DNA from: Dehalococcoidia bacterium
GTDB taxonomy: Bacteria > Chloroflexota > Dehalococcoidia > Lucifugimonadales > Australimonadaceae
DNA: 64,000 bases
Direction of reading: 5' to 3'
NCBI GenBank assembly: GCA_965243745.1
Contig: CBDEVR010000002.1
Span: forward strand, 903,263 to 967,262
The notes beneath the pieces are model-generated. The model saw only the letters and a program-made list of their open reading frames with translations. It did no database searches and was not told the origin of the DNA. Position numbers and translations under genes: made by a program. Shown piece by piece: positions 6,419 through 46,420 of the stretch (positions are counted from its first letter, which is position 1; every line of letters begins with the position of its first letter).

Positions 6419-6420
6419 TC

Positions 6421-20890: not shown

Positions 20891-20978
20891 GCGTAGCCCT
20901 ACGCGCGAGGTCGTTCTCCTTGACAGGCCCGTTGGCGACGCCATAGCCTGCCTCCTCGGTACGAACATACGATCACTG

Positions 20979-21143: not shown

Positions 21144-21214
21144 AGGTGACCACTCTCCGCCTCAGAGAGGGTCCCTCGGCCACCGGACGCGAATCCCGGC
21201 AGAGTGAAGCCTGA

Positions 21215-30907: not shown

Positions 30908-30992
30908 CCTGAGGGATGCTTCGACTCCCCTCAGCATGACAGGTGCCACCCCCATCCTAGCCTTCCCCCACCAAGGGGGAAGGGACCAGACA
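30908..30992. repeat. REP-like repeat cluster (short family D unit + family A unit)
   Basis: CCTGAGGGATGCTTCGACTCCCCTCAGCATGACA followed by CCACCCCCATCCTAGCCTTCCCCC-accaa-GGGGGAAGGGACCAGACA. Confidence 0.88.
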
Positions 30993-31076
30993 GCCGTGCC
31001 CGCAGCGAGTCGTTCACGGTGGTACACTCGCGCAGTTGCAGGGCGTGTCCCGAGAGCAGAGCGGGAAGGGGGAACG

Positions 31077-32327: not shown

Positions 32328-32344
32328 GGGTAAAGGAGGCGCGC

Positions 32345-33442
32345 ATGGCAACAACGGCGAAGGTAAGAGTTGTCGACAGCGACGCCCACGTCATCGAGTC
32401 CGAGCACACGTGGGACTACCTCCTCCCGCACGAGGAGCGGTTCCGCCCAACGCTGTTCGTCAACCCGGACAACCCCAACCAGGGGCACTGGGTGATCGGC
32501 GGGAAGGTGCGCGGGCACCGGAACGCGACGCCGACGCAGGAGCACCTGCGGAAGCTCTCGGCGCAGGTGGGGCGCGACCTCATCTCCACACAGGACTCCC
32601 GCGAACTGTCCGACGTGTCCCAGCGGTTGCGGCACATGGACGAGCTTGGCATCGACGTACAGGTGCTCCACAACACGATGTGGATAGAGCCGGTGACGGA
32701 CGTGCCGGAAGCCGACGTCGCCCTCTGCGGCAGCTGGAACCGGTGGATGGCCGACGTGTGGCAGCAGGCGGGTGGACGCCTCCGATGGTGCGCCGTGATG
32801 CCGACGCTCGACATCGAGGCCGCAGTCGAGCAAATCGGCTACGCGAAGGAGCATGGCGCGGCCGCCATCGCCCTGCGCCCCCTGGAGCTCGGGAAGACGC
32901 TGGTAGACCCGTACTTCTACCCGCTCTACGCCGAGGCGGAGAGGTTGAACCTGGCGGTGGCCATCCACATCTCCAACGGCAGCAGCGCGATGCTTCAGAC
33001 GCTGCGGTCGCCGTTCGACCGGACCGGAGGGTTCACGCCGTTCCGCATCCCGACGGTGATGGAGTGCGGCGTCATCATGGTGAGCGAGGTGCCGGAGCGC
33101 TTCCCAGCGTTGCGGTGGGGGTTCGTAGAGGCGTCGTCGAACTGGGTGCCGTGGATCGTTCGCGAGGTGCGCCAGCGGTTCATCGCCCGCAACCTCGGCC
33201 CTCCGCCCGAGAACGTCCTGAAGCACTTCAACGTGTACGTCACCTGCGAGGTATCCGACGATATCCCGTTCGTGCTGAAGCACGGCGGCGAAGACAACAT
33301 CCTGATCGGGACAGACTACGGGCACACGGACGTCTCCAGCGCGATGGACGCCATCAGTGTGTTCATGGCGATGGACGACGTCAGCGACGAGGCGAAGGCC
33401 AAGATCCTGTACGACAACCCGCGAGCGCTGTACGGCCTCTAG
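32345..33442 (+). CDS. Amidohydrolase-2 family metal-dependent hydrolase
   Basis: MATTAKVRVVDSDAHVIESEHTWDYL... ...ILIGTDYGHTDVS... ATG 32345 lies in frame in the track ORF. Confidence 0.85.
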   Translation: MATTAKVRVVDSDAHVIESEHTWDYLLPHEERFRPTLFVNPDNPNQGHWVIGGKVRGHRNATPTQEHLRKLSAQVGRDLISTQDSRELSDVSQRLRHMDELGIDVQVLHNTMWIEPVTDVPEADVALCGSWNRWMADVWQQAGGRLRWCAVMPTLDIEAAVEQIGYAKEHGAAAIALRPLELGKTLVDPYFYPLYAEAERLNLAVAIHISNGSSAMLQTLRSPFDRTGGFTPFRIPTVMECGVIMVSEVPERFPALRWGFVEASSNWVPWIVREVRQRFIARNLGPPPENVLKHFNVYVTCEVSDDIPFVLKHGGEDNILIGTDYGHTDVSSAMDAISVFMAMDDVSDEAKAKILYDNPRALYGL

Positions 33443-33461
33443 AGGCCAGAGGAGGACAACC

Positions 33462-33992
33462 ATGCTGGAAGCAGCGGAGAGGTTCGTAAGCGAGGTCCGC
33501 ACGCTCTGCGCACAGGAGATGAGCGACGAGGAGCGCTGGACGAGGACGGGTGAACTCCTGCGCGACTTCGCCTCCGACCCGGAGGTGCAGGAACACGCGA
33601 AGAACTGGCCCGCGACCGACCGGACGAGCACGGGGCGCGACAGGACCGGCAACCTGATCTTCTACGAAAACCCCGACTACGGCTTCCTCGTCACCGCGAT
33701 GGCCAAGGAAGCCGGGCACCACACGACCGTCCACGACCATGGAGAGATCTGGACGATGTACGGGCTCGTGCAGGGGACGGAGGAGATCAACCGCTTCCAC
33801 CGCGACCGCGACGAGGTCGTCCACGACAGCACCTTCCGCATCGAGCCCGGCGACGTGGACGTGGTGCCGCCGCACCTGGCGCACCAGGAGATCACGATCG
33901 GGGAGCGCAGCGCCGCGATCATCATCCGCAGCGAGCGACGGGCCCGCGGGGCGGAGCTGATCCCCTACGCGCTCGAAGCAACCGGCGGCTAG
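33462..33992 (+). CDS. Cupin-fold protein (cysteine-dioxygenase-type-I-like)
   Basis: 176 aa. SD GGAGGA at 33451. ...HHTTVHDHGEIWTMYGLVQGTEE...PPHLAHQE (His-rich cupin motifs). Confidence 0.62.
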   Translation: MLEAAERFVSEVRTLCAQEMSDEERWTRTGELLRDFASDPEVQEHAKNWPATDRTSTGRDRTGNLIFYENPDYGFLVTAMAKEAGHHTTVHDHGEIWTMYGLVQGTEEINRFHRDRDEVVHDSTFRIEPGDVDVVPPHLAHQEITIGERSAAIIIRSERRARGAELIPYALEATGG

Positions 33993-34934
33993 TTGCCCTT
34001 GGCGGTATTCGGCGTCCAGTACAACGGGGCCTTGATGGCGAGCGTCATCGGCTCACTCGAATTCGCCGAGCGGACGGAGGCGCTGGGGTACCGCTCCTAC
34101 TTCGTTCCGGAGCTCGAGACGCTCCCGACGCTCGACGCCTTCATCCTGCTCGCGTCCGTCGCGCAGCGCACGACGCACATGCGCCTGGGAACCGGCGTCG
34201 CCGTGCTACCGTTCCACACCCCGTACCAGATCGCGAAGATCGCGACCTCGATCGACGTGCTGTCGGGAGGGCGGATGGTGCTGGGGCTGGGCTCAGGCGG
34301 CGTCTACAACGGCGACTTCGCCGTCGAGGGCGTGCGGGTGGAGGACCGGCGCGGCATCACTGACGAGCGGTTCGCCCTCGTGCGCAGGCTGCTCTCCGAG
34401 ACGGACGTGACGCATCACGGGACGTTCCACGACATGGAGCACGTGACGCTGGAGCCGCGATCCGTTCAGCAGCCGCATCTGCCCCTATGGACCGGGGCGA
34501 TGTGGGACGGCCGGTTCACCCGGCATACGCTGGAGCGAACGGCGCGCTGGGCCGACGGGTTCCACCCTAACGGCATGACGCCGAAGGGCTACGCCGAGGG
34601 CAAGGCCGCCATCGAGGAGATGGCAGCCGCGTACGGACGCGACCCGGCGGCGTTCGAGTGGTCGTGCAATATGTACCTCTGCATGGGGCAGAGCAAGGAC
34701 GACGCCTACCGGGAGGTGCAGGCCGCGATGCGGCACCGTTTCGGGGACGACGCCTGGGAGATAGACCCGGCGACGCTCCCGCTCGGCACACCGGCGGACT
34801 GCATCGAGGCACTCGAAGCGTTCACCAACGCGGGCGTGACGCACTTCACCATGAACGCTCTCTGCGCGCCGGAGGCACTGCTGCCGACCTACGAGCGGTT
34901 CGCTGCGGAGGTCATGCCGCACTTCGGGGAGTGA
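33993..34934 (+). CDS. LLM-class flavin/F420-dependent oxidoreductase
   Basis: 313 aa: ...LGYRSYFVPELETLPTLDAFILLASVAQRTTHMRLGTGVAVLPFHTPYQIAKIATSIDVLSGGRMVLGLGSGG... TTG start, exact start uncertain. Confidence 0.82.
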   Translation: MPLAVFGVQYNGALMASVIGSLEFAERTEALGYRSYFVPELETLPTLDAFILLASVAQRTTHMRLGTGVAVLPFHTPYQIAKIATSIDVLSGGRMVLGLGSGGVYNGDFAVEGVRVEDRRGITDERFALVRRLLSETDVTHHGTFHDMEHVTLEPRSVQQPHLPLWTGAMWDGRFTRHTLERTARWADGFHPNGMTPKGYAEGKAAIEEMAAAYGRDPAAFEWSCNMYLCMGQSKDDAYREVQAAMRHRFGDDAWEIDPATLPLGTPADCIEALEAFTNAGVTHFTMNALCAPEALLPTYERFAAEVMPHFGE

Positions 34935-34940
34935 GGGGCA

Positions 34941-35118
34941 GGACCCCCGCTCCTCAGCCCCGCCGAGGCCCTCACCCGCGCGCTGAAGCGCGTTTCCCTC
35001 TCCCTCAGGAGAGGGGATCAGACAGGGCACCACAAGGGGCGCCCCTACACCAAGCACCACTCCCTTCCACCGATTCACCCCCATCCTGACCTTCCCCCAT
35101 CAAGGGGGAAGGGATCAG
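34941..35118. repeat. REP-like mosaic array (A' + E + A units)
   Basis: ...CCGCCGAGGCCCTCACCCGCGCGCTGAAGCGCGTTTCCCTCTCCCTCAGGAGAGGGGATCAGACA; CACAAGGGGCGCCCCTACACCAAG; TTCACCCCCATCCTGACCTTCCCCC-atcaa-GGGGGAAGGGATCAGG. Confidence 0.88.
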
Positions 35119-35122
35119 GCGG

Positions 35123-36415
35123 CTAGTAGGTGGCGGCGATGGCCTCCTTGAGGTTCTCGTGGGTGGCCCAGTCGGCGTCCTTCGGAATCATCGTCTGACC
35201 CGGGCGGACGCGGAAGGCCTCGGCGTTCCGGGCCGTCGCCGGCTCGGAACCTTCACGGATGGCGGAGGCCGAATTCAGGAGCATGCGGCGCATGGCGATG
35301 ATGCCGATATCCGTGACGCCCAGGTGCTCGCGGGTGCGGTCGGATATCTGCCCCATGCCCTCCTGCACGGAGAAGTCCTGCTCCCCGGTGCCCTTGATGC
35401 CGGTGAAGGTGAGGTACTTCTGCTCCTCCCGGTCGATGAGGTAGTCGTTGCGCATGTTGCGCACCGGCCAGTGGGAGCCGGGGATGGTCTGCGCGTGGAC
35501 GCCCTGCCCCTTGCGGAGGTCGGCGACGTGCCTTCGGGAGAGCGGCTTGTCGGTGGTGCTCCAGGTGAAGCACCACCGCGCCGTGGTGACGTCGTCGACG
35601 GGGACGAAGGCGTGCATCATCTTCTGTTCGCCACCGCCGGGCGGGGCGGTGTAGAAGGGCATCCAGAAGAGGTTGAAGCGCCAGTAGTCCTGTGTCTCGT
35701 CGCCGGGGTACCTGCCGCCGATGATGAGGCCGAAGTCGGTCTCGAGCGCCTTCAGCTTGGGCGGGTTCTCGCGCGTGCGGTACATCTTGGTCACGTCGCC
35801 GGAGTCCCTGCCCGCCTCCTGCCAGTCGCTGAGACGGCGGTGGGAGTCCATGGCGCTGTGCAGGTAGACCGAGTGCACGGTGTCGATGCCGCCCTCGATG
35901 GCCTGCGCGTAGTTGTTCTCCTGGAAGTTCCAGGAGACGTAGCGGTGGTCGTCGGGGACGCGGGTCCACTCGAACTCCGGCATCGGCTGCATGTGCTCCT
36001 TCGGGCCCATGTACGTCCAGAGGACGCCGCCGCGCTCCCGCACGGGGTACGCCCTCAGCTGGATCTTGTCCCTGAAGTTGCTGTCCGACGCCTCGGACGG
36101 CATGTCGGTACACCTGCCGTCGACATCGTACTTCCAGCCGTGGTAGGTGCAGCGGATGCCGTTCTCCTCGTTGCGGCCGAAGAAGAGGTCCGCGTTGCGG
36201 TGGGCGCAGAGGCGGTCCACCAGCCCAACCTGCCCGACGCTGTTCCTGAAGGCGACGAGCCGCTCGCCCAACAGGGTGACGCGGACGGGCTCGCCGTCGA
36301 CTTCGGGGATGTCTTCGGTGAGGAGGAACGGGATCCAGTAGCGGCGCATCAGCGCGCCCATCTCCGTTCCGGGACCGATGCGGGCCAACCGTTCGTTATC
36401 CGTTGCGCTCAGCAT
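35123..36415 (-). CDS. Rieske [2Fe-2S] aromatic-ring-hydroxylating oxygenase, alpha subunit
   Basis: 430 aa. Rieske motif CAHRNADL...CTYHGWKY, then a catalytic domain. No adjacent beta subunit. Confidence 0.9.
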   Translation of the reverse strand: MLSATDNERLARIGPGTEMGALMRRYWIPFLLTEDIPEVDGEPVRVTLLGERLVAFRNSVGQVGLVDRLCAHRNADLFFGRNEENGIRCTYHGWKYDVDGRCTDMPSEASDSNFRDKIQLRAYPVRERGGVLWTYMGPKEHMQPMPEFEWTRVPDDHRYVSWNFQENNYAQAIEGGIDTVHSVYLHSAMDSHRRLSDWQEAGRDSGDVTKMYRTRENPPKLKALETDFGLIIGGRYPGDETQDYWRFNLFWMPFYTAPPGGGEQKMMHAFVPVDDVTTARWCFTWSTTDKPLSRRHVADLRKGQGVHAQTIPGSHWPVRNMRNDYLIDREEQKYLTFTGIKGTGEQDFSVQEGMGQISDRTREHLGVTDIGIIAMRRMLLNSASAIREGSEPATARNAEAFRVRPGQTMIPKDADWATHENLKEAIAATY

Positions 36416-36499
36416 GGCAACCTCCCTTGTGCGTTCGATGTTCTCTCGATGGCGCGAGATTAGGACGATACGCCGCGCGGGTCAACAGCACGGGGCGGC

Positions 36500-36815
36500 C
36501 TCAGAACCCTCACCCGCCGCGCAAGCGCGTCGACCCGTTCGGCAAGCTCAGGGCAGGCTCTCTCCCAGGGGGAGAGGTGGGCTGCGAGGTTCCTGCCTCC
36601 GCAGGACGAGGGCACTTGGGCGCGCCTTCACCCCCATCCTAACCTTCCCCCGTCAAGGGGGAAGGGACCAGGCGCCCCGCCGCCTCGCTCCGCCGAGGGC
36701 CCCTCACCCGCCGCGCAAGCGCGTCGACCTCTCCCCCAGGAGAAGTGGGGTGGTCCCACTCCTCACCACCGGTTCACCCTCACCCTAACCCTCTCCCCTC
36801 AACAGAGAGGGGACC
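36500..36815. repeat. REP-like mosaic array (~315 bp: A' variant, C, A, A', A)
   Basis: Successive units, e.g. GAGGTTCCTGCCTCCGCAGGACGAGG (C), CCTTCCCCC-gtcaa-GGGGGAAGG at 36643-36665 (A), CCCTCACCCGCCGCGCAAGCGCG... (A') and TTCACCCTCACCCTAACCCTCTCCC... (A). It fills the whole Rieske/FAH spacer. Confidence 0.88.
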
Positions 36816-36820
36816 ACTCC

Positions 36821-37735
36821 CTAGCGGCGGGCGGTGGAGTCCGGGCCCATGTAGATACCACGTTCCCACGTCCGCTTGAGCGGGTCCGACACGTGCAACG
36901 TCATGCTGCCGATGCCCGCCAGCTCGAACTCCACCGTCTCCCCGTCCTGCAGGGGGCCGAGCCCCTCGTGGTTGGTGCCGCAGCTGAGCACGTCGCCCGT
37001 GTTGAGCGTCATGATGCTCGTTGCAAACTCGATCAGCTCCGGCACGCGGTGCTCCATGTCGTCGGTGTTGTAGTCGTGGCGCAGCTGGCCGTCGTTCCAG
37101 AATCGAACGTGCACGTCGTTCGGGTCGGCGATCTCGTCAGCCGTGACGATCACCGGGCCGAGGGGACCGAAGGTGTCGAACGACTTGCCCATCCAGCTGC
37201 CCGCGCGCCAGGTGCGGCGTCCTTCACCGCGAGCCGACACGTCGATCAGGCCGGTGTATCCGAACACCGCGCTCGCGAAGTCTTCCCTGCTCACGTCCTT
37301 TGCCGGGCCCTTGGCAACGATGGCGAGTTCCGCCTCGTGCTGGAAGACCCACGGGTCGGTCGTCGACGGCAGCACGATCGTATCGCCGGGGCCTATGACG
37401 GCGTCAGGCGACTTCAGGAACATGTTGAGGGGGCGGGGCTCCCGCTCGGCGTGCTCCCAGTAGTTGCCGATGCAGCAGAGTATCTTGCTCGGTCTCGGCA
37501 GCGGCGCGCGGAGGCGGAACGAGCCATCCGCATGCGACGGCCCACCTGCAATGATGCGCTCGAAGGCACCGCGCAGCCCTTTGAATCCGTCGATGACGGC
37601 TTCCATGCGCGCCTGCGCCGGCAGGGCAGCGGCATCGCCGAGGGCGGCGGTCAGTTCAGCGACGCCGCCATCAACCACCGTGCCGAGGCGTTGCTGGCCG
37701 GGGGCATCGCTCGTTTCGAACAGGCAGAGTTTCAT
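36821..37735 (-). CDS. Fumarylacetoacetate hydrolase (FAH) family protein
   Basis: 304 aa: ...PSKILCIGNYWEHA-like region, FQHEAELAIV, GKSFDTFGPLGP, DVLSCGT (FAH-family motifs). Confidence 0.88.
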   Translation of the reverse strand: MKLCLFETSDAPGQQRLGTVVDGGVAELTAALGDAAALPAQARMEAVIDGFKGLRGAFERIIAGGPSHADGSFRLRAPLPRPSKILCCIGNYWEHAEREPRPLNMFLKSPDAVIGPGDTIVLPSTTDPWVFQHEAELAIVAKGPAKDVSREDFASAVFGYTGLIDVSARGEGRRTWRAGSWMGKSFDTFGPLGPVIVTADEIADPNDVHVRFWNDGQLRHDYNTDDMEHRVPELIEFATSIMTLNTGDVLSCGTNHEGLGPLQDGETVEFELAGIGSMTLHVSDPLKRTWERGIYMGPDSTARR

Positions 37736-37785
37736 CTCTCTTCTCCTTGTGGTTCGTTCTCAGAACTATCGCATAACCAAGGGGA

Positions 37786-38075
37786 AGGACCACAAGGGCG
37801 CCCACAAGGGACGCCCCTACACCAGGTGCCGCGTCTCCCCGCCGGTTCACCCTCACCCTCGCACTGGCGCGCGTTTCCCTCTCCCAGAGGGCGAGGGGAG
37901 CCTTCCGTTCCTCCCCCAGAGTACCCTCACCCTAACCCTCTCCCCTCAAGGGAGAGGGGACCAACGCCGCTTCCACCCACCAGCCCCACCGCGTGACCTG
38001 CCCGGTCACTCTGGATTCCCGCCGGTGCGGGAATGACGGGGGAAGCGGAGTGACGGAAGGGGTGGGAATGACGGG
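37786..38075. repeat. REP-like mosaic array (E, A', A, B, B fragment)
   Basis: CACAAGGGCGCCCACAAGGGACGCCCCTACACCAGG; TTCACCCTCACCCTCGCACTGGCGCGCGTTTCCCTCTCCCAGAGGGCGAGGGG; CCCTCTCCC-ctcaa-GGGAGAGGG at 37936-37958; CTGGATTCCCGC-cggt-GCGGGAATGACG at 38011-38037. Confidence 0.9.
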
Positions 38076-38079
38076 ATCG

Positions 38080-38724
38080 TCACTCCTCGTGGGCGAAGGT
38101 GAGGCCGTAGACCCGCGACGCACCGGCCGACAGCAGTGCGCTCGCAGCGGCGGAGAGCGTCGCGCCGGTGGTGGTGACGTCGTCCACGAGGACGATGGTC
38201 TCGCCGTCGAGCGGACCCGTGGAAGCGAACGCGTCGCGCACGTTCCGCAGGCGGTCTGCCCGGTTCGACGTGTCGACCTGCGACGACGTGTCCTTCGTGC
38301 GGCGCAACGCGCGGGTCGCAAGCGGGGCGTCGAGCACCCGCGCAACCTCCCGCGCGAGCAGCTCGGCCTGGTTGAAGCCGCGCTCGCGCAGACGCTTCGG
38401 ATGCAGCGGGACGGGCACGAACGCGAACGGCGGCGGGACGGTGACCGCCGCCTCCCACGCCATCAGGCGCGCCATCTCCGGTGCGAGCGCGCGCACGCCG
38501 CGGTACTTGAGGTGCTGCACCGCGGTCCTCGCCACGCCCTCGTAGGCGAGCGGCGTCAGCACGTCGGCGAGCGGACCGCTCTCAGGCGGCGGCGCCGGCG
38601 ATGGACGCTTAGCCTGTGTAAGACACGTCGCACAGAGGTACGCGCCGCTCCTGCCGCAGCCGACGCAGCGGACGGGGAAGAGCACGTCGAGCGTGGAGCG
38701 GAGGATGTTGGAGACGATGCGCAT
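38080..38724 (-). CDS. comF: ComF-family phosphoribosyltransferase-domain protein
   Basis: 214 aa. N-terminal Zn-finger-like CVGCG...CATC, then ...RGFNQAELLA... and the PRTase motif IVLVDDVTTTGATL. Confidence 0.88.
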   Translation of the reverse strand: MRIVSNILRSTLDVLFPVRCVGCGRSGAYLCATCLTQAKRPSPAPPPESGPLADVLTPLAYEGVARTAVQHLKYRGVRALAPEMARLMAWEAAVTVPPPFAFVPVPLHPKRLRERGFNQAELLAREVARVLDAPLATRALRRTKDTSSQVDTSNRADRLRNVRDAFASTGPLDGETIVLVDDVTTTGATLSAAASALLSAGASRVYGLTFAHEE

Positions 38725-38726
38725 GG

Positions 38727-38982
38727 AACCCTCACCCCCGGCCCCTCTCCCAGAGGGCGAGGGGAGCCCAGCAAGGCGCCCGAGAGATGCTTCGACTCCG
38801 CTGTGCTCCGCTCAGCATGACAACCCCCCATTCCCGCCAGCCCCACCGCGTGCGCTGCCCGCGCACCCTGGATTCCCGCCGGTGCGGGAATGACGAAGCA
38901 TCCCAGCCATGCCCAACTCCAGGCTGCGAGGTTCCCGCCCCCGCTTCCACGAGGGTGACTTCCCTGCGCGGGAATGACGGAA
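38727..38982. repeat. REP-like mosaic array (A', D, B, C, B fragment)
   Basis: CCCTCACCCCCGGCCCCTCTCCCAGAGGGCGAGGGG; CCCGAGAGATGCTTCGACTCCGCTGTGCTCCGCTCAGCATGACAA; ...CTGGATTCCCGCCGGTGCGGGAATGACG; GCGAGGTTCCCGCCCCCGCTTCCACGAGG; CCTGCGCGGGAATGACGG. Confidence 0.9.
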
Positions 38983-39013
38983 GGGGGCAGTGCATCATGG
39001 TAGGCTGAACCGC

Positions 39014-39727
39014 ATGATACGGGCCGTGTTCTTCGACTTCTACGGCACGCTGGCCGACTGGCCGACGGCGGAGGGGCTGCAGCAGGCAGCGGCCGCAGCC
39101 GAGGGCATCGTTGTCGGTCAAGCCGCCATCGCGAGCGCCTACCGCACGGCGAACGCCTACATGGACGCGGAGAACGCGAGGCAGCCCGTGCAGCAGCGGA
39201 CGCAGGCCGAACGGGACGCGTTCTTCGCGGAGTACGAGCGCCGGCTCCTCGCCGACGCCGGCGCGCCGGACGTGAGTCTCGACGTTGCGGCGCGCGTCTG
39301 GCAGCGCGTCCGCGGCGCACCCGACGAGCTGACGCTCCTCCCCGACGCAATGTCCGCGCTCGAAGAACTGCGGGCGCTGGGCCTCACGCTCGGCGTCATC
39401 TCCAACATGGGGTTGGAGTTGAACGGACTGCTGGAACGGCTGGGCATCGGCGGATACCTGCCCGTGCGCTCCACCACCGGGAGCGCGGGCGTGAGCAAGC
39501 CGCACCCGCGCATCTTCCAACTGGCGCTCACGCAGGCGGGCGCGCAGCCCGCCGAGGCCGTACACATCGGCGACAGCATCGGGGCAGACGTGGAGGGAGC
39601 GCGCAGCGCGGGGATCACGCCGGTGTTCGTGCAGCGGACGCCGGGTCCCTCCGCGCCGGACGGCGTAGCGGTCGTGGGGTCGCTGACGGAGGCCGCAGCG
39701 CACGTGCGGTCGCTGCTGGGAGGCTGA
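39014..39727 (+). CDS. HAD-superfamily hydrolase
   Basis: MIRAVFFDFYGTLADW (DxDxT-type motif I) ... ISNMG ... HIGDSIGADVEGA (motif IV). Confidence 0.85.
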   Translation: MIRAVFFDFYGTLADWPTAEGLQQAAAAAEGIVVGQAAIASAYRTANAYMDAENARQPVQQRTQAERDAFFAEYERRLLADAGAPDVSLDVAARVWQRVRGAPDELTLLPDAMSALEELRALGLTLGVISNMGLELNGLLERLGIGGYLPVRSTTGSAGVSKPHPRIFQLALTQAGAQPAEAVHIGDSIGADVEGARSAGITPVFVQRTPGPSAPDGVAVVGSLTEAAAHVRSLLGG

Positions 39728-39742
39728 GGTGGAAGCACCGCG

Positions 39743-39818
39743 GTGGTTCGACAGGCTCACCATGAGCGAAACAAGCGCACAGGTTGCGCGGTTCCTGCCT
39801 GCGCAGGAACGACGGGGG
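39743..39818. repeat. REP-like units (FDKL-type unit + family C hairpin)
   Basis: GTGGTTCGACAGGCTCACCATGAGCGAAACAAGCGCAC then GGTTGCGCGGTTCCTGC-ctgc-GCAGGAACGACGG (stem 39792-39798/39803-39809). Confidence 0.8.
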
Positions 39819-39822
39819 TGAC

Positions 39823-40668
39823 GTGAACCGCATCGTGCTCGGCGACAACATGGACGTGCTGCCGGCCATCGAGGACGGCGCGGCTGCGCTGATCTACATC
39901 GACCCGCCGTTCAACACGGGAAAGGAGCAGCGGCGCGAGCGCCTGCGGACGGTGCGAGACGACGAGCACGGCGACCGCACCGGGTTCCAGGGCAGGCGCT
40001 ACCGGACGGTGCGGCTCGGCGCGCAGTCGTTCGACGACGTCTTCGACAACTTCCTCGCGTTCCTGGAGCCGCGGCTCGTCGAGGCGTACCGCATCCTCTC
40101 ACCGACGGGGTCGTTCTTCCTGCACATCGACTACCGGGAGGCGCACTACTGCAAGGTGCTGCTCGACGCGCTGTTCGGACGCGAGTGCTTCATGAACGAG
40201 ATCATCTGGGCGTACGACTACGGCGGCAGGCCGAAGAACCGCTGGCCCGCCAAGCACGATACGCTGCTCTGGTACGCGAAGGACCCGGCGCGGTACACGT
40301 TCCACCACGACGCGATAGACCGCGTGCCCTACATGGCCCCCGGGCTGGCAGGCGCGGAGAAAGCGGCGCGCGGGAAGATCCCCACCGACGTGTGGTGGCA
40401 GACGATCGTTCCTACGGTCGGACGCGAGCGCACCGGCTACCCGACGCAGAAGCCCATCGCCATCCTGGACCGCATCGTGCGGGTGCACTCAAACCCCGGC
40501 GACCTGGTGCTGGACTTCTTCGCGGGGTCGGGGACGACGGGCGAGGCCGCGGCGCGCAACGGCAGGCGCTACCTGCTCATCGACAGCAATCCGGAGGCCG
40601 TGCGGGTCATGGCGGAGCGGCTCGCGTTCAGCGGGCCGGAGGTGGTGGGGAGAGGGCCCTCACCCTAA
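39823..40668 (+). CDS. Beta-class N6-adenine/N4-cytosine DNA methyltransferase (orphan)
   Basis: Motif IV IYIDPPFNTG precedes motif I LVLDFFAGSGTTGEAA (beta-class order), with PTQKP in between. GTG 39823 is the proposed start. The TAA stop lies inside a family A repeat. Confidence 0.85.
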   Translation: MNRIVLGDNMDVLPAIEDGAAALIYIDPPFNTGKEQRRERLRTVRDDEHGDRTGFQGRRYRTVRLGAQSFDDVFDNFLAFLEPRLVEAYRILSPTGSFFLHIDYREAHYCKVLLDALFGRECFMNEIIWAYDYGGRPKNRWPAKHDTLLWYAKDPARYTFHHDAIDRVPYMAPGLAGAEKAARGKIPTDVWWQTIVPTVGRERTGYPTQKPIAILDRIVRVHSNPGDLVLDFFAGSGTTGEAAARNGRRYLLIDSNPEAVRVMAERLAFSGPEVVGRGPSP

Positions 40669-40902
40669 CCCTCTCCCCCAGGAGAGGGGGATATGGCAAT
40701 TCCCAGGGAGAGGGCGCGTAGAAGCGTGGACCAGGCGAGGTTCCTGCCTTCGCAGGAACGACGGAGCGTCCCGCTCCGCCAACCCTCACCCACACGCTGA
40801 AGCGCGTTGCCCTCTCCCAAGGGGCGAGGGATCAGCCTCCTCCCATAACCCAGCCTCCCCCTGCGACCTGACGGTCGCTCTGGATTCCCGCCGGTGCGGG
40901 AA
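40655..40902. repeat. REP-like mosaic array (A, C, A', B)
   Basis: CCCTCACCCTAACCCTCTCCCCCAGGAGAGGGGG; GAGGTTCCTGC-cttc-GCAGGAACGACGG (40741-40758); CCCTCACCCACACGCTGAAGCGCGTTGCCCTCTCCCAAGGGGCGAGGG; CTGGATTCCCGC-cggt-GCGGGAATGACG (40885-40902). Confidence 0.9.
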
Positions 40903-40944
40903 TGACGAACGCCATTTCCGCACCGACGGGTTACCACCCTGCGG

Positions 40945-42270
40945 CTACGAGTGCTTCACGTTGTACTGCAGCGCGGTGTGGGTCGCGTTGGCGCGGTCGC
41001 CGGAGCGCTCCGCGAACGCCACGCGCATGCTGACGACCATGACGTTCTGGCGCTTCTGGATGTCGCGCTCCGTCTCGATGAGCAGCTCGCGCTTGAAGCC
41101 CTTGCGCCACTGCGTGCGGTTCAACAGCAGCAGACGCCCGGTGTTCGCAACGTTGCCGTCCGAGGTGATCCTGCCGTCCGAGTCCGCGAGCCGCAGCTGC
41201 TCCGACACGATGACGGGCACGCCCTCGACCGCGCCCAGTTGCCCGGTGAGCAGGGTCGCGCGCGGGCCGAGCTTGTCCAGGGTCTGGAAGCTGTCCACCG
41301 CCTGCATGGCGATGTACGTGCCCACGTCCGTGACGAACGCCAGTTCCGACGGGCGCACGCCGTACTTGCCCAGCATCCGCCGCAACTGGTTGAACATGTC
41401 CACGGTCGGCTTCGCGTTGAAGTTGCTCTTCATCGCCGTGTTGTCCACCAGCGGCAGGTGCAGCAGGCCATCGAAGCCCAGCAGGTAGTGCGCCTTGCCC
41501 GCGGCGGAGGGGGCGAGGGTCCCGCCGTCGTGGTTGATGTTGGACGAGGTGGTCACGTCCGCGTTCAGCAGCACGTCGTCCAGCACCTGCGCCGCGTTGC
41601 GGAGCAAGGTGGAACGCACCTCCGCCATCATCGCGACGACGGCGTCCTCGTCCAGCTCGTAGGCCCACGGCACCATGCCGACGAGCTCGTGCGCCGTCAG
41701 CGTCTGCTTGGCGGTCTTGAGGTCCGTGGCAGTGGTGGCCGTGTTCGCCGTACCCGGGTACCAGTCGACGTCGCCCAGCTGCAGCGGCACGTCGAACGGG
41801 TTGGACGGCATCGTGACCGTCTCGAAGAGCGAGGCGACCGCGGTCTCGATGTTCACGTCCGCCCACAACTGGCGCGCCTCCTCCTGCGGGACCAGCTCGT
41901 CGCCCGCGCCCGCGGTGGTGGAGTCCATCGCCTTGGCGACGCTCTCCTGCCATGCGCGGAGCGCTCGCGGGTCGTAGTCCTGCGGGCGCGCCTGCTGCGC
42001 CGCGAGCAGGCTCCGCATCACGGCGAGGTCCACGAGGTCGAACCCGTCGAGCTTCCCGCCGCGCACGCGGACGCGATCGTTCGACGTCCGGCCCAGCAGC
42101 GCGTCGCGCCGTACCGAACGGTCGTGCTCCAGCACGCGGCGCACTTCGCCCGCGAGCCGTTCCTGCTCCTCGCGCATGAGCGTCAGCTCCTTCGTCACGG
42201 GGCCGAGCCGCTCGCGCACGAACTCCTGCGTCTCCACTATCTCCTTCTGCATCTCGTCTATCGCAGACAT
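40945..42270 (-). CDS. HK97-fold phage-type major capsid protein with N-terminal coiled-coil (delta-domain-like) region
   Basis: 441 aa. SD AGGAGG. The N-terminal ~100 aa is charged/helical (MSAIDEMQKEIVETQEFVRERL...EEQERLAGEVRR). The remainder resembles the Phage_capsid/HK97 family (...ELVPQE...WADV..., ...GVPVIVSEQL..., ...LLLLNRTQWRKGFKRELLIE...). Confidence 0.85.
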   Translation of the reverse strand: MSAIDEMQKEIVETQEFVRERLGPVTKELTLMREEQERLAGEVRRVLEHDRSVRRDALLGRTSNDRVRVRGGKLDGFDLVDLAVMRSLLAAQQARPQDYDPRALRAWQESVAKAMDSTTAGAGDELVPQEEARQLWADVNIETAVASLFETVTMPSNPFDVPLQLGDVDWYPGTANTATTATDLKTAKQTLTAHELVGMVPWAYELDEDAVVAMMAEVRSTLLRNAAQVLDDVLLNADVTTSSNINHDGGTLAPSAAGKAHYLLGFDGLLHLPLVDNTAMKSNFNAKPTVDMFNQLRRMLGKYGVRPSELAFVTDVGTYIAMQAVDSFQTLDKLGPRATLLTGQLGAVEGVPVIVSEQLRLADSDGRITSDGNVANTGRLLLLNRTQWRKGFKRELLIETERDIQKRQNVMVVSMRVAFAERSGDRANATHTALQYNVKHS

Positions 42271-42289
42271 CTCTCCTCCTTCTGTGGGA

Positions 42290-42538
42290 TCAGTTCTCCT
42301 GTTCGATGACCGGCGCGGCCTCTATGGCCCCGGCCAGTGCTTCGCCGAACCTGCGCGCCGACGACGCCAGCGCATCCCGCTCGGCCACGGTCAGGCCGTC
42401 CGGGGCGGCGCGGACCGACTCGCGCATCAGCCGCGCTCCGGTCTCCAGCGCTTCGGCGGCATCCGGCGCAACCCGGCAGAGGCCGTCCACCAGCCGCGCC
42501 GCCTGCAACGCCACGCGCACCACCTGTGCTATCCGCAT
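42290..42538 (-). CDS. Hypothetical 82 aa Ala/Arg-rich protein between protease and capsid genes
   Basis: ATG with AGGAGG 6 nt upstream (complement of 42545-42550). The stop lies 19 nt before the capsid ATG. No recognisable family. Confidence 0.55.
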   Translation of the reverse strand: MRIAQVVRVALQAARLVDGLCRVAPDAAEALETGARLMRESVRAAPDGLTVAERDALASSARRFGEALAGAIEAAPVIEQEN

Positions 42539-42575
42539 CGCTCTCCTCCTTTCCCGGCCCGAGGGCCGTTTTGTT

Positions 42576-42772
42576 TAACCCTCACCCTCGCGCTGACGCG
42601 CGTTTCCCTCTCCCAGAGGGGGAGGGGAGTCCCGAGAGATCCCTCGACTCCGCTACGCTGCGCTCGGAATGACAACCTCCACGCCTCCCCGCCGGTTCAC
42701 CCTCACCCCCAACCCTCTCCCCTCGAGGGAGAGGGGGTCAGACAGCGCGCCCGCAGGGGACGTCCCTACGCC
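42576..42772. repeat. REP-like mosaic array inside the protease-capsid operon (A', D, A, E)
   Basis: CCCTCACCCTCGCGCTGACGCGCGTTTCCCTCTCCCAGAGGGGGAGGGG; CCCGAGAGATCCCTCGACTCCGCTACGCTGCGCTCGGAATGACAA; CCCTCTCCC-ctcga-GGGAGAGGG (42713-42735); palindrome AGGGGACGTCCCT (42755-42767). Confidence 0.9.
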
Positions 42773-43455
42773 GAGACAAGGCTGCGCAGACGGCGGAGTT
42801 CGCTCAGGACACGCTGGGCGTCCTCCGGCGCGATGTATGAGGCTGGTAGGTCGAACGTGAACAGCGGACGCAGCCGCGGCGCCTCGAGCCCGCCCTCGAG
42901 CGCCTTCGCCAGTGCGTGCGGGTTCGCGGGCACCGGCACCGCGCTCAGCTCCAGCAGCTCCTGCTTCGTGTACTCGACGCCGTCCACCGAGCCGTCACGG
43001 CTCTTCCGGAATGAGAACTCCCTGGCGCGGAAGCCGACACTCACGGCGCGTAAGAACCGCTGCCGGTAGAGCAACTCGACCTCCCGGGTGAACGCTGTGG
43101 GAGCGAACTCCACGGTCGCCATCAGCTTCGCGCCGTCCACGCCCACCCACGAACAGCGCCCGATCGGCGTGCGGGTGTAGTCGTGCGCCCACAGGAAGAC
43201 GGGGTTGTGCTTGTAGGCGTCCAGGTCCCAGCCGCCGGCGCGTACGACGTCGCCCAGGCGGTCGGGCGACTCATCCGACGCCACGACCGTCAGCGGGCGG
43301 TCCTCGTTGGGCGCGACGGCGCGGCAGACCGAGAACCGCTGCACCACCGGCGCGTCGGCCAGCCCCCGCCGGTACGCCTCCAGCGACTCCAGCAGCCGCT
43401 CACGCTCCCACCGCTCACGCTCGCTGACACCCGCGCTCACCTCGTACGACTCCAT
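42766..43455 (-). CDS. HK97-family prohead (capsid maturation) serine protease
   Basis: 229 aa. SD AGGAGG. ...NPVFLWAHDYTRTPIG..., ...LRAVSVGF..., ...ELLELSAVPVPANPHA... match prohead-protease (S78/U35-type) motifs, including candidate catalytic His and Ser. Confidence 0.85.
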   Translation of the reverse strand: MESYEVSAGVSERERWERERLLESLEAYRRGLADAPVVQRFSVCRAVAPNEDRPLTVVASDESPDRLGDVVRAGGWDLDAYKHNPVFLWAHDYTRTPIGRCSWVGVDGAKLMATVEFAPTAFTREVELLYRQRFLRAVSVGFRAREFSFRKSRDGSVDGVEYTKQELLELSAVPVPANPHALAKALEGGLEAPRLRPLFTFDLPASYIAPEDAQRVLSELRRLRSLVSA

Positions 43456-43501
43456 GCCTCTGCCTCCTGTGTGTCCGCCGCGGGTGAACGTCCCGGAAAC
43501 G

Positions 43502-43534
43502 AAAAAAGCCCCGGCCCTTTCTCAAGGCCGGGGC
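43502..43534 (-). terminator. Intrinsic terminator on the minus strand, 46 nt upstream of the protease ATG
   Basis: The minus strand reads GCCCCGGCC-ttgagaaa-GGCCGGGGC followed by TTTTTTCGTTT (9 bp GC stem + T6). Confidence 0.75.
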
Positions 43535-43645
43535 TCGTCCCCGTTCATGCGTCTCATCCGGCGAACTTCGGTTGTTGGGATCAGGTTAGCGCACTATCGT
43601 CAATCGCGAAACCAGCCGGTGTCACAAATCTGACTTGTGGATACG

Positions 43646-43736
43646 GAAGGGACCAGACACCTACCCGCGCCCCACCGGGTGCCCTCACCCACGCGCTGAA
43701 GCGCGTTGCCCTCTCCCTCAGGAGAGGGGACCAACC
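43646..43736. repeat. REP-like units (A 3' fragment + A')
   Basis: GGAAGGGACCAGACAC then ...GCCCTCACCCACGCGCTGAAGCGCGTTGCCCTCTCCCTCAGGAGAGGGGACCAACC. Overlaps the thpR stop codon. Confidence 0.85.
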
Positions 43737-44314
43737 GCCAGCCGGGCCGACGCAAGGCGTGTGTAGACCGCGCCGGTGGGGAGCAGGTCGCTGTGGTACA
43801 GTCCGACCTCCTCCACCGCGAAGGGCACAGGACGAACGTCCAGCGCCGCGACGGCCTCGCGCAGCGCGTGCGACTCGTCCCGCGACAGCCTCGTGTTAAC
43901 CCGTGCGAGCGTGACGTGCGGCGCGAAGGCGCGGTCGTCGTTCGGGACGCCAGCCTCAGCGAGCGAGCGCTCGACGCGGTCGCGCAGGCCAATCAGCGCA
44001 TCGACCGCGCCGCCGACACCCGCCCACAGCACACGAGGGGCGCCTCGCGGCGGGAAGACGCCTGCGCCCGCCAGCGACAGCTCGAACGGGGCGATGCCAT
44101 CGGCGGCGTGGGTGATCGCCTCGCCGAGCGCCGACGTCGCGTCCGGCGGCGTGCTACCGATGAACCGTAGCGTGAGGTGCGCGCCGTCCACGTTCGCCCA
44201 CCGCGTGCCGCGCGGCGCGAATGCCCGCATCTCGCCAGCGACGCGCTTCAATTCGGTGCGGACCTCGTCGGGGAAGGCGAGCGCGACGAAGAGGCGGAGG
44301 ATACCGTCAGCCAA
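43718..44314 (-). CDS. thpR: RNA 2',3'-cyclic phosphodiesterase (2H family, LigT/ThpR)
   Basis: ...LRLFVALAFPDEV... with the two H-x-T-x motifs HLTLRF and HVTLAR. Proposed TTG start at 44314; the longer track ORF (to 44440) would overlap the upstream gene. Confidence 0.82.
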   Translation of the reverse strand: MADGILRLFVALAFPDEVRTELKRVAGEMRAFAPRGTRWANVDGAHLTLRFIGSTPPDATSALGEAITHAADGIAPFELSLAGAGVFPPRGAPRVLWAGVGGAVDALIGLRDRVERSLAEAGVPNDDRAFAPHVTLARVNTRLSRDESHALREAVAALDVRPVPFAVEEVGLYHSDLLPTGAVYTRLASARLAVGPLS

Positions 44315-44849
44315 TGGATGCCTCGCTGAACATCGCAAGCATCTCACGCTGTATCTCGGTGAGTGGGAAGGAGGGATTGCGCCGCGGGTAGATCTCAGCA
44401 GCATCCCAGAATTCACGTCTGACGCTAGTGGCAATGCCAATCTTGGAGGTGAGTCCCCTTATGAGAGAAGCTGTCTCAAACAGGTAGACCGCTTCGATGA
44501 CCCAAGGGCGGGTCTTACCGCGAGATGACACTGCCGCACTCCTCGGTCCTGTAAGCACGAGGTAATATTCCGGCGCACCATCAATGGCTATGTCCAACAC
44601 TCCTTCATTCTTTGGGTAATACTTGATGTTCACTGTCGCCCCAGAGAGCCGACCGCCTGCGAAGCACCCGTCGCTACCCTTCTGTACGGCTGAGGCATGC
44701 AGTTCGACGCCGTATATCTCCGCACCCACGAAATCTCCAAAGTGGCCTGGAATCGTGGGGCGGCCAATCACCTCAGCGATCTTGCCGTCGGCATAGTTCT
44801 TCTGCTGTACAAGTTCGGCGAGACGTTGCATCTGTTCCAAGTTGCTCAT
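44307..44849 (-). CDS. Hypothetical protein, compositionally foreign (~50% GC)
   Basis: 180 aa from MSNLEQMQRLAELVQQKNYADGKIAEVIGRPTIPGHFGDFVGAEIYGVELHASAVQKGSDG...VNIKYYPKNEG... SD GGAGG. Start overlaps the mug stop (ATGA) and the end overlaps the thpR start. Confidence 0.65.
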   Translation of the reverse strand: MSNLEQMQRLAELVQQKNYADGKIAEVIGRPTIPGHFGDFVGAEIYGVELHASAVQKGSDGCFAGGRLSGATVNIKYYPKNEGVLDIAIDGAPEYYLVLTGPRSAAVSSRGKTRPWVIEAVYLFETASLIRGLTSKIGIATSVRREFWDAAEIYPRRNPSFPLTEIQREMLAMFSEASIG

Positions 44850-45412
44850 ACTGCCTCCCCGCGTTCCGTCCTGGCGCGTTCGATCAGGTCGGCGAGGCGG
44901 CGGTACCAGCCCGCGATGTCGTCCAGGGAGTAGGAGGCGTTCGCCGGGCTGGGGTTCGGCGCGACGAACACACGGCTGTCCCCGAGCCACTCCGGCTGCT
45001 CGCCGAGCGCAACGTCGTCCTGTTTGCGTCCCTCCGCGTACTGCAGGAACCACTTGTAGCCGGTGATGCCGTTGAAGCAGACGACGAGCGGTGACGCCTC
45101 CAGCAGCTTCTCCCGCGTCAGCGGCGCCCAGGCGCGGAAGTCGGCGGCGCGCAGGCTGGACGCGCTGTTGCTCGCGCGCTTGACCACGTCCGTGAAGCCG
45201 ACTGCGCGATGCTCGAACAGCCACGCCTCATCGCCGGGACCGAGCTCATAGCCATCTGTGACGCCGGAGCGGTTGAGCGCGCCCCAGAACCGGTTCTGGG
45301 GCGTCGCGAAGTACTTGCCCACCGACGCCGAGTACGCGCCGGGGTTGATGCCGACGAACACGAGGTCGAGTCCGGGACGCAGGTAGTCCGGCAGCGTCGG
45401 CGCGTCAGTCAT
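44846..45412 (-). CDS. mug: G/U mismatch-specific uracil-DNA glycosylase (family 2 UDG, Mug-like)
   Basis: MTDAPTLPDYLRPGLDLVFVGINPGAYSA...YFATPQNRFW...VGFTDVVKRA...VAPNPSPANA (GINPG and NPSxxN Mug motifs). Confidence 0.85.
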   Translation of the reverse strand: MTDAPTLPDYLRPGLDLVFVGINPGAYSASVGKYFATPQNRFWGALNRSGVTDGYELGPGDEAWLFEHRAVGFTDVVKRASNSASSLRAADFRAWAPLTREKLLEASPLVVCFNGITGYKWFLQYAEGRKQDDVALGEQPEWLGDSRVFVAPNPSPANASYSLDDIAGWYRRLADLIERARTERGEAV

Positions 45413-46286
45413 CGGCGAGCCCCAGCAAACGCGCGGCGTTGCCGCCGAGAACGGCCTGCGCCGTCGCGGGGTCGAGCGTGCTGCGAGCCTGCTCCGCGAC
45501 ACGCGACGCGCTCAGCAGCGGATAGTCCGAGCCGAACAGCACGTGGTCCGCTCCCACGGTGCGCACGGCGACGTCGAACACGCGCGCGTCGTAGAGGAAG
45601 GGCGTCGCCGCGCTGTCGAAGTATGCGTTCGCGAGCGCCTCTTTCACCTCCGGCATGAGCGCGTAGAACGGCAGCCCGCCGCCCCAGTGTGCGAACACCC
45701 AGCGCACGTCCGGGAACCGCTGCGCCGCCGCGAGCAGCCGCTCCGGCGTCGTCGAACCCTTGCCCGGGTAGGCGTGGCCGACCGGCTCCGAGCCATGGAC
45801 GGCGACAAGCAAGCCGCGCTCCAACGCGAGATGCGCCAGCGGCGCGAACGACTCGTCCGACGCGAGGTCTATCTCCTGCGAGGTGGGGTGCAGTTCGCCG
45901 ATGCCGACCGCGCCCGCGTGCGCGCAGCGCTCCACCTCGCGCAGGGCGTCGTCGCCCCAGCCGGGATGTACGGAGCAGAACGCGGCGATGCGCCCCGGAT
46001 ACCGCGTCGCGGCGTCCAGCAGGCAGTCGTTCGCCTCGCGCGCGACCTCGCGGTCGCACCAGCCGTAGCCGAGCACGACGGAGCGGTCGATGCCGTCCTC
46101 GTCCATCGCCGCGATGAGATCCTCTGCCGTGGCCATCCTGCCCCCATTGCCGAAGAGCGCGGCGAACGTGGCGTCGCGCGCCGCTATCTCCGAGCGCCGT
46201 TCATGGAAGGAGGCAGGCAGCAGGTGCGTGTGGAAGTCAACGATCACGAGGCCCCTCGCGCCGGTCGTCTGCTGCCATAGGGTCAT
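45405..46286 (-). CDS. Amidohydrolase-family metal-dependent hydrolase
   Basis: MTLWQQTTGARGLVIVDFHTHLLP... ...VLFGSDYPLL... ATG 46286 lies in frame in the track ORF. 8 nt overlap with the mug start. Confidence 0.8.
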   Translation of the reverse strand: MTLWQQTTGARGLVIVDFHTHLLPASFHERRSEIAARDATFAALFGNGGRMATAEDLIAAMDEDGIDRSVVLGYGWCDREVAREANDCLLDAATRYPGRIAAFCSVHPGWGDDALREVERCAHAGAVGIGELHPTSQEIDLASDESFAPLAHLALERGLLVAVHGSEPVGHAYPGKGSTTPERLLAAAQRFPDVRWVFAHWGGGLPFYALMPEVKEALANAYFDSAATPFLYDARVFDVAVRTVGADHVLFGSDYPLLSASRVAEQARSTLDPATAQAVLGGNAARLLGLADD

Positions 46287-46288
46287 CT

Positions 46289-46420
46289 GAACAAGCGCAC
46301 GTCCCCTGAGAGATGCTTCGACTCCGCTGCGCTTCATTCAGCATGACAATACTCCACCCGCCTCCACACCCCTTGTGCGCTGCCCGCGCACCCTGGATTC
46401 CCGCCGGTGCGGGAATGACG
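46289..46420. repeat. REP-like array (D + B units)
   Basis: AACAAGCGCAC...CCCTGAGAGATGCTTCGACTCCGCTGCGCTTCATTCAGCATGACAA then ...GTGCGCTGCCCGCGCACCCTGGATTCCCGC-cggt-GCGGGAATGACGG (stem 46398-46404/46409-46415). Confidence 0.9.

Follow-up and report, generated by a model that had tools for sequence, protein, structure and literature searches.

The window analyzed here, a stretch of 64,000 nucleotides from a Dehalococcoidia bacterium of the phylum Chloroflexota (contig CBDEVR010000002.1, positions 903,263 to 967,262), harbored an operon of three minus-strand genes encoding an HK97-type prohead protease, an orphan protein of 82 aa (orf82), and a major capsid protein. The three open reading frames (ORFs; 43455-42766, 42538-42290, and 42270-40945) were intact, as an initial annotation of this DNA had described, and the AGGAGG ribosome-binding sites that it listed were found 6-8 nt upstream of the ATG of each gene. 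The GC content of the trio (0.69-0.70) was similar to that of its housekeeping neighbors, also as claimed, and the GC content at third codon positions (GC3) of the capsid gene (0.94) was the maximum of the window.

A scan with one genome per species identified the capsid in at least 303 species genomes, all of them Dehalococcoidia, SAR202, or sponge Chloroflexota metagenome-assembled genomes, and more than 1200 full-length homologues were found (95% to ~59% identity), many on chromosomes of 2-5 Mb. The loci around the capsid gene were surveyed in 80 species and sorted into four groups. Group A comprises the window and ~17 species, with capsids 90-95% identical to that of the window and the gene order UDG-orf181-LigT-(protease-orf82-capsid)-methyltransferase-HAD-PRT. 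The intermediate group I (capsid ~80%) has the same trio with rearranged flanks, group B (71-80%) has a fuller head module between the same flanks as group A, and group C (~60%) has modules similar to those of group B but varying in completeness.

The protease gene (42766-43455, minus strand) encodes a serine protease of 229 aa, which matched Pfam Peptidase_S78 (PF04586; E 1.7e-9, 38.5 bits, gathering threshold 21) and the head-maturation protease families of PHROG (phrog_80, E 3e-20). The score against NCBIfam TIGR01543 was 38.9 bits, under the cutoff of 59; therefore, the protein is a divergent member of the S78/proheadase_HK97 family. No match to the protease was obtained in PDB by phmmer. 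The motifs FLWAHD..PIG, SVGF, and SAVPVPANP were all present as previously quoted, and the His (LWAHD) and Ser (SVGF) motifs, which we take to hold the catalytic residues on the basis of HK97 gp4, were kept in groups A, I, B, and C.

The capsid gene (40945-42270, minus strand) encodes a T5 pb8-like protein of 441 aa with a predicted HK97 fold, which matched Pfam Phage_capsid (PF05065; 32.7 bits, cutoff 24.2), NCBIfam TIGR01554 major_cap_HK97 (54.3 bits, cutoff 27.5), phrog_10, and, in a profile search of PDB, the phage T5 capsid pb8 (5tjt, E 3.9e-15). Since the alignment with 5tjt begins near residue 130, the capsid carries an N-terminal helical extension of ~120 aa. These ~120 residues were modeled as long helices in both AlphaFold2 runs, whose pLDDT values of 38.7 (16 homologues) and 41.7 (70 homologues) were too poor for a fold search, and the predicted helical part is consistent with the delta/scaffold-like domain proposed initially. 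In phage T5, the long N-terminal domain of the capsid precursor is removed by the prohead protease. By sequence profile pb8 is the nearest solved structure, and the T5 pair of pb8 and protease pb11 follows the same precursor-plus-protease logic, although T5 is a complete virulent phage and the nearest deposited phages to the capsid of the window, which are T5-like, share only ~21% identity with it.

The gene between them, orf82 (42290-42538, minus strand), encodes an Ala/Arg-rich orphan that is recognizable as a gene by its ribosome-binding site, its codon pattern (GC3>GC1>GC2), and the selection acting on it. Gene calling recovered it at 82 aa in L001, L140, and L141, and it is confined to the reduced lineages, namely group A and the intermediates. 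An exhaustive HMMER search of 1.84 billion proteins returned three representatives only, consisting of its own orthologues and one artefact (P0243), which was rejected as a tandem-repeat translation. No family match to orf82 was found in Pfam, PHROG, NCBIfam, or PADLOC, and none of the three proteins matched the defence-system models of PADLOC. The spacer between the protease gene and orf82 (42539-42765) is filled with dispersed hairpin repeats of the host (D4, D8, and a D1-like copy).

Upstream of the protease gene, we identified a conserved block of ~150 nt (43636-43487), hereafter the cassette, which the initial annotation had missed and which is conserved in group A amid scrambled intergenic DNA. 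It begins with a promoter-like element (43583-43626, minus strand) of the form TGTGACAC-N7-TTTCGC-N17-TAACCT, with -35-like and -10-like hexamers, followed by a leader of ~40 nt, a stem-loop (GGGG-ACGAG-CCCC, 43530-43542, minus strand) running into a strong intrinsic terminator (43496-43536, minus strand; 13-bp stem with 9 G-C pairs and a T-run, found by terminator scan), ~40 poorly conserved nt, the ribosome-binding site, and the ATG. The near-palindromic box TGTGACA abuts the -35-like element, an arrangement like that of activator-dependent promoters, and the element would accordingly be an activator-type promoter. Every group A locus has kept the promoter element with its spacing, as have groups I and B, where the cassette likewise lies upstream of the protease gene, and weaker copies were found upstream of the post-capsid adaptor cluster. 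The terminator is near-invariant in 16 loci, with a folding energy of about -37 kcal/mol, and ends ~40 nt before the protease ATG. No conserved promoter was found between the terminator and this ATG; therefore, transcription of the operon must cross the terminator.

In the window, the 3' arm of the ACGAG hairpin forms part of the 5' arm of the terminator. The loop is invariant and its arms co-vary (GGGG/CCCC, GCGG/CCGC, and CTGCGG/CCGCAG), and in some leaders of large terminase (TerL) genes, described below, the hairpin is separate from, and ahead of, a distinct terminator. This anatomy suggests a protein-bound antiterminator hairpin. In antitermination leaders, BglG/SacY-type proteins bind ribonucleic antiterminator (RAT)/terminator overlaps, and lambda N-boxB is another leader of this kind; they resemble the cassette in having a small hairpin with an invariant loop that precedes or overlaps an intrinsic terminator between promoter and genes. 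The leader of the window, however, shares no sequence or Rfam similarity with them, and the likeness is one of layout. Rfam gave no match to the leader at gathering thresholds, with sub-threshold noise at E up to 10, and a guanidine-II match of 13 bits was rejected as far under threshold, off-register, and missing the hairpin. The ACGAG loop on a G+C stem, in the window and likewise in L143-L163, does resemble the ACGR loops of guanidine-II (mini-ykkC) RNAs, yet there is one hairpin per leader.

The cassette was specific to genes of this element. A regular expression for the promoter matched ~3 Mb of loci at 28 sites, each of them lying upstream of an element gene, and matched nowhere else in the window. 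Across metagenomes, a scan for promoter plus hairpin gave 19 matches, of which ~4 are attributable to chance, 3 lay at protease-orf82-capsid operons, and ~11 at TerL genes; none preceded any other kind of gene. No match to the cassette was found among the 2.9 million viral contigs of IMG/VR.

Within the window, portal, terminase, adaptor, and tail genes were absent, based on tblastn with the family-specific proteins of related elements, the gene list, and Pfam searches of unassigned ORFs; Pfam likewise identified none of them at the syntenic locus of genome L001. The initial annotation had described the operon as standing alone, which was correct for the 64 kb. In functional terms it was not, since the cassette is shared with terminase genes 1-2.5 Mb away in three genomes. 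These remote TerL homologues were found by a search with the terminase of L022. In L011, L028, and L007, all of the window's clade, an isolated, full-length TerL gene lies amid housekeeping genes, at ~0.70, ~0.44, and ~1.29 Mb, respectively, with the capsid gene at ~2.21, ~2.92, and ~2.24 Mb (~1.5, ~2.5, and ~1.0 Mb apart). Each is preceded by a cassette of the form TGTGACAC-N7-TTGCGC-N17-CATACT/CACACT, a GCGG-ACGAG-CCGC hairpin, and a terminator, with the same spacing as in the capsid operon. The remote TerLs retain the P-loop, a Walker B-like motif, and three nuclease aspartate motifs, and their dN/dS among close relatives is 0.04-0.30. In L007, a divergent gene of 134 aa with its own promoter box encodes a small-terminase-like protein (TerS; phrog_2538, E 1.4e-6). 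Additionally, an isolated portal gene was found between host genes on L166, in window-like DNA (GC 0.69, carrying the D8 repeat of the window), behind a variant of the cassette that keeps the N7/N17 spacing; L166 was not assigned to any group A chromosome. Because the same cassette heads the remote TerL and TerS genes and a variant heads the isolated portal gene, the scattered head genes form one regulon. No integration or replication genes were found within 10 kb on either side of the capsid or TerL loci or in the 64-kb window, and the small ORFs beside TerL (61, 57, 89, 214, 237, and 128 aa) had no match in PHROG or Pfam. A class of ~410-aa portals (51-54% identity) was considered as the portal of the window's clade and rejected, as the members of the cluster sit in other genomes.

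Immediately upstream, the isolated TerL genes adjoin variable DNA that resembles a defence island (L143 5942-9767; L144 7895-9646; L145 5101-9822), with genes for an LmuB-like SMC ATPase (PADLOC E 6e-27), DUF7689, PIN, and Fic with an Arc-like partner, and with Ku/LigD near. L143 has two extra promoter boxes at small ORFs (61 aa; 57 and 89 aa), and its 89-aa ORF is 98% conserved in L150. The TerL genes of L144 (10001-11368), L150, and L156 carry in-frame insertions of VVPAEAGTSQP-like peptides in the linker between ATPase and nuclease, which look like copies of host repeat families tolerated in coding sequence. A larger in-frame insertion of ~470 nt in the TerL gene of L161 is possibly intein-like.

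The trio showed clear signs of purifying selection. Between the window and 15 group A species, dN/dS was 0.114 for the protease, 0.155 for orf82 (0.29 against the intermediates), and 0.138 for the capsid, with dS of 0.28-0.44, whereas the flanking housekeeping genes had dN/dS of 0.12-0.27 and dS of 0.33-0.60. Pairwise capsid distances followed those of UDG, HAD, PRT, and LigT (Spearman 0.82-0.89), and the flanking genes diverged 1.1-2.0 times faster; with a slope above 1, the capsid is the slower-evolving. The capsid and protease were full or near-full length at every locus surveyed (~80 species, down to 58% identity). In-frame stops were seen only in the capsid match of L063 (n=1) and in a few group C protease matches, which came from a mis-selected query frame. 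TerL and portal genes lay within 10 kb of the capsid gene in about a quarter of the species, and such copies were broken in L021, L024/L142, L033, L066, and L072.

These results bear on the possibility that the operon is a non-functional prophage remnant whose decay is still to come. Its separation from other virion genes and the repeats that have entered its spacer would fit such a remnant. The genes are nevertheless intact in all ~80 species apart from the single stop in L063, the trio is more conserved than the flanking housekeeping genes, and the regulatory cassette is conserved as well. The broken orthologues and dN/dS near 1 that the initial annotation had named as marks of decay were not seen; with dN/dS of 0.11-0.16, dS like that of the flanks, and capsid distances that track the host at a slower rate, decay is refuted, and a remnant of this kind is extremely improbable. 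The matching GC content, the low dN/dS, and the co-divergence instead agree with the earlier view of an old, ameliorated resident rather than a recent prophage, and they support an interpretation of the trio as a vertically inherited, host-resident gene set under selection.

The origin of the operon is indicated by the sister clades. In group B, the module between LigT/UDG and HAD/PRT begins with an ImmA-like metalloprotease and a helix-turn-helix (HTH) repressor and contains TerL (phrog_2, E 2e-37), an HK97-type portal (phrog_2662, E 3e-73; TIGR01537), the protease, and the capsid, followed by two small genes, a head-tail adaptor (phrog_442) whose C-terminus is fibre-like, and one small gene. 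Up to the point where housekeeping genes resume, the module lacks integrase, replication, and tail genes. IMG/VR contains a true phage relative, L126 (capsid 45% identical), in which an adaptor of the same type is followed by Neck1 and major tail genes, and because this phage runs on into tail genes, the chromosomal elements are head-only. Host genes have entered some of the modules, namely an aldo-keto reductase between portal and protease in L002, a hydrolase after the capsid in L142, and five host genes between portal and protease in L167. L022 represents an intermediate locus with the order TerL-cassette-protease-orf82-capsid. The post-capsid genes of group C (64, 132, and 132 aa) had no match in PHROG or Pfam. 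Comparison of these loci shows that the ancestral form was a tail-less head module at this site, which in the lineage of the window was cut to protease-orf82-capsid.

The initial annotation had offered the remnant of a capsid-forming satellite as one of three readings. Descent from a head-only element, as seen in the sister clades, is in keeping with this, and the sister-clade element resembles those phage-inducible chromosomal islands (PICIs) that form capsids, and other phage satellites, in its tail-less head set and adjacent pair of repressor-type regulators. The form present in the window does not follow the satellite pattern: it has no integrase, att site, or replication module and no variable location, occupying a fixed syntenic site, and a contiguous full head module exists only in the sister-clade form. 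Unlike capsid-forming PICIs, the SAR202 element is without integrase, replication, and excision genes and has co-diverged with its host at one site, host genes are inserted within the sister-clade module, and in the window only the protease and capsid remain of it.

Taken together, we consider that the trio may represent one locus of a dispersed, co-regulated, and domesticated head-gene set resembling a gene transfer agent (GTA) and owned by its SAR202 host, a reading to which we assign a probability of roughly one half on the evidence of gene sequences. The best fit among the three initial readings is this one, worded there as one locus of a dispersed GTA-like system. The initial annotation had also noted that a co-regulated remainder of the head-tail module elsewhere would reclassify the operon; this was borne out for TerL, TerS, and the isolated portal in a related contig, and not for a portal or tail genes in the window's clade, where none was found. 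In the mechanism that we propose, the cassette would hold the regulon off through its activator-type promoter and the ACGAG hairpin overlapping the terminator. Given this promoter type and the leader terminator, expression of the operon should need a trans-acting activator or antiterminator. Once the regulon is on, capsid precursors would assemble through their N-terminal domain, and the S78 protease, co-assembled by its C-terminal tail, would cut this domain off, both following the HK97/T5 paradigm. TerS and TerL might then fill the shell with DNA through a portal encoded elsewhere, in a GTA-like manner. DNA packaging and a particle function of the head-gene set are suggested here by analogy.

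Several observations weigh against this reading. Portal, adaptor, and tail genes were not placed in any group A genome, including the three with TerL and TerS-like genes, in a search that fell short of whole chromosomes and is prone to false negatives, and the window's own genome was covered over 64 kb only. Among the remote TerLs, two types of paralogue could be told apart, A1 of ~455 aa and A2 of ~540 aa, the latter accompanied by TerS. The capsids of L007 and L028 are 99% identical, and yet their TerLs differ in type and site (53% identity), each being a singleton at 90% clustering. Moreover, group B genomes in which the element has its own TerL apparently carry A-type TerLs as well (P0336 on the L021 chromosome; P0294, P0315, and the portal P0130 on one contig of 2,911,394 bp). 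The idea that the remote TerL is the element's own terminase relocated was rejected in view of the two paralogue types, their turnover between close relatives, and this apparent coexistence with TerL_B. Because TerL types vary and coexist, the cassette marks a family of scattered head-gene loci with turnover rather than one dismembered module. Finally, in many lineages the TerL and portal genes close to the capsid are defective or missing, which the capsid and protease never are, so that the shell could be selected for something other than DNA packaging.

Such a shell might be a nanocompartment. Encapsulins are HK97-fold nanocompartments classified into families 1-4 (Andreas & Giessen 2021, PMC8346489). 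The capsid of the window is like them in being a shell gene, with a predicted HK97 fold, in a chromosome, with no virion gene nearby besides those of the operon. An encapsulin-like compartment, also among the initial readings, would here be a protease-matured shell with orf82 as cargo, scaffold, or decoration, and the TerLs behind the cassette would be unrelated leftovers that share an ancestral promoter. It gains from the persistence of capsid and protease, which alone are never lost or broken where TerL and portal erode repeatedly, from the lack of a portal found in the window's clade, from the restriction of orf82 to the reduced lineages where it is under selection, and from the slow evolution and top GC3 of the capsid gene. 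Moreover, HK97 gp4 and gp5 alone are established to suffice for the assembly and maturation of portal-less shells. The shell protein, however, belongs to the phage capsid families PF05065 and TIGR01554 only, and neither Pfam nor NCBIfam gave a match to an encapsulin shell family such as Linocin_M18. It has an N-terminal scaffold-like domain, and where an encapsulin operon would have an adjacent or fused cargo enzyme and no phage morphogenesis genes, this one pairs the shell gene with a prohead protease and the orphan orf82. The control cassette is common to TerL and TerS genes, with intact catalytic motifs and purifying selection, and a tightly terminated leader of phage-late type would be odd for a metabolic compartment. 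We therefore regard this explanation as quite unlikely.

A further explanation, which we consider unlikely, is that these are phage-responsive host genes, serving in defensive interference or left from a grounded helper-dependent satellite. Here the cassette would be the late-gene control signal of SAR202 phages, and the activator or antiterminator of an infecting relative would turn on capsid, protease, and TerL, which would compete with or poison the assembly and packaging of phage heads or borrow portal and tail. This would account for a cassette that is the most conserved intergenic DNA in the window's clade although no regulator gene adjoins it there. It also agrees with the group B modules, whose ImmA/HTH pairs are like those of prophages and satellites and which are head-only like capsid-forming satellites, with the turnover of TerL type between close relatives, and with the variable defence-island-like genes that adjoin TerL (LmuB-like, Fic, PIN/MazE, and a type I restriction-modification subunit). 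However, the capsid co-diverges slowly with its host, unlike genes in an arms race, the site is fixed without integrase, replication module, or att-like mobility, and the trio has no PADLOC match. Since the cassette was not found in the 2.9 million viral contigs, no candidate helper phage is known.

The closest known counterparts of the GTA-like set are the RcGTA-type agents of Rhodobacter capsulatus and other Alphaproteobacteria. RcGTA consists of host-inherited HK97-lineage head genes, with the core in one cluster of ~15 kb and some components at separate loci. The SAR202 genes are alike in the HK97 lineage of TerL, portal, S78-type protease, and PF05065 capsid, in vertical inheritance and purifying selection on structural genes, in lacking genes for integration and replication, and in having components at separate, co-controlled loci. 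They differ in that even the core head genes lie dispersed, each as a single-gene locus, and in that the host belongs to the Chloroflexota, tail genes were seen in no clade, and the window's clade yielded no portal. Additionally, the SAR202 capsid is T5-like with a putative delta domain, and control is apparently exerted by a promoter and a hairpin/terminator leader. The scattering as single-gene loci is reminiscent of polydnavirus domestication in wasps.

The intergenic spaces of the window were packed with dispersed hairpin repeats, short and often stacked, of at least four families (D1, D4, D6, and D8; REP/MITE-like), with cores of the form CCCTCTCCC...GGGAGAGGG or CGGGAATGACG. The host repeats reported earlier in the spacer of the operon belong to these families, which occupy 42575-42750 and both flanks of the operon. 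Copies of D6 (40845-40907) and D4 (40779-40833) just downstream of the capsid stop (40779-40907) mark the end of the operon. The repeats are concentrated in 34965-46420 (e.g., 37846-37900, 40779-40907, 42575-42682, 43678-43732, and 46297-46420) and also occur in 4020-7612 and 30947-37980.

The called genes of the window are ribosomal, transport, cobalamin, proline, recA/rny, and catabolic genes, and Pfam assigned the remaining ORFs to Aldedh, MFS, Gate, and Amidohydro_2 proteins or left them as small orphans. The neighbors of the capsid locus encode LigT, UDG, a methyltransferase, and HAD. The methyltransferase (39784-40668, plus strand) is a beta-class N6/N4 DNA methyltransferase (type II model of PADLOC, E 1e-140; CcrM-like by NCBIfam) with no endonuclease nearby. 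It is 90-95% conserved in group A with dN/dS of 0.116, and because it is conserved beyond its housekeeping neighbors, it is probably an orphan regulatory methylase. It was rejected as a part of the element, as in L022 it accompanies LigT/UDG and not the capsid. The 181-aa orphan orf181 (44307-44852, minus strand), with a weak DUF6998 match, overlaps the ends of UDG and LigT at a local GC dip of 0.635; full-length matches were found in 5 of 15 group A species, with dS of ~1, and it seems to be a gene within a repair-gene operon that evolves fast or can be replaced. In the 94%-identical relative L001, a MazE-antitoxin gene and a 132-aa partner lie directly downstream of the capsid, in the gap before the methyltransferase (11518-12136), an insertion that is not in the window. 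Elsewhere in the window, we identified a cobalamin riboswitch (20969-21152, plus strand; 114 bits) upstream of cobalamin/ABC transport genes, two tRNA genes (11332-11403 and 14047-14119, both on the plus strand), and two tandem pairs of paralogues with 71-76% nucleotide identity, namely adjacent MFS transporters (12008-12641 and 13304-13937) and adjacent short-chain dehydrogenase-like genes (55067-55696 and 56034-56663).

Few bacterial clades are as abundant in the dark ocean and in sponges as SAR202. To our knowledge, GTAs are known from only a handful of lineages and none has been described in the Chloroflexota, and our literature search found no report of a domesticated phage-particle system in SAR202. 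What is unusual here is the occurrence of core head genes as scattered single-gene loci, their shared hairpin/terminator switch, and a lineage cut to protease, orphan, and capsid. It is tentatively possible that SAR202 bacteria harbor a previously unrecognized, domesticated virus-like particle system, in which scattered single-gene head loci are joined by a promoter and an ACGAG-hairpin/terminator switch and which the lineage of the window has pared to a capsid that matures itself, whether or not DNA is packaged. The retention of the capsid in at least 303 species and its slower evolution than housekeeping neighbors indicate that the host needs it. The shared cassette offers a ready probe for members of the regulon in any genome, and its leader hairpin/terminator is a candidate for a new antitermination element. 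As domesticated phage-particle genes, the SAR202 head-gene set would amount to a new class of GTA-like systems, or to a link so far missing between encapsulins and phage capsids. If DNA is packaged, an uncultured marine clade that is abundant worldwide would have a new route for exchanging genes; if not, the protease-matured shell would bear on the origin of encapsulins from phage capsids.

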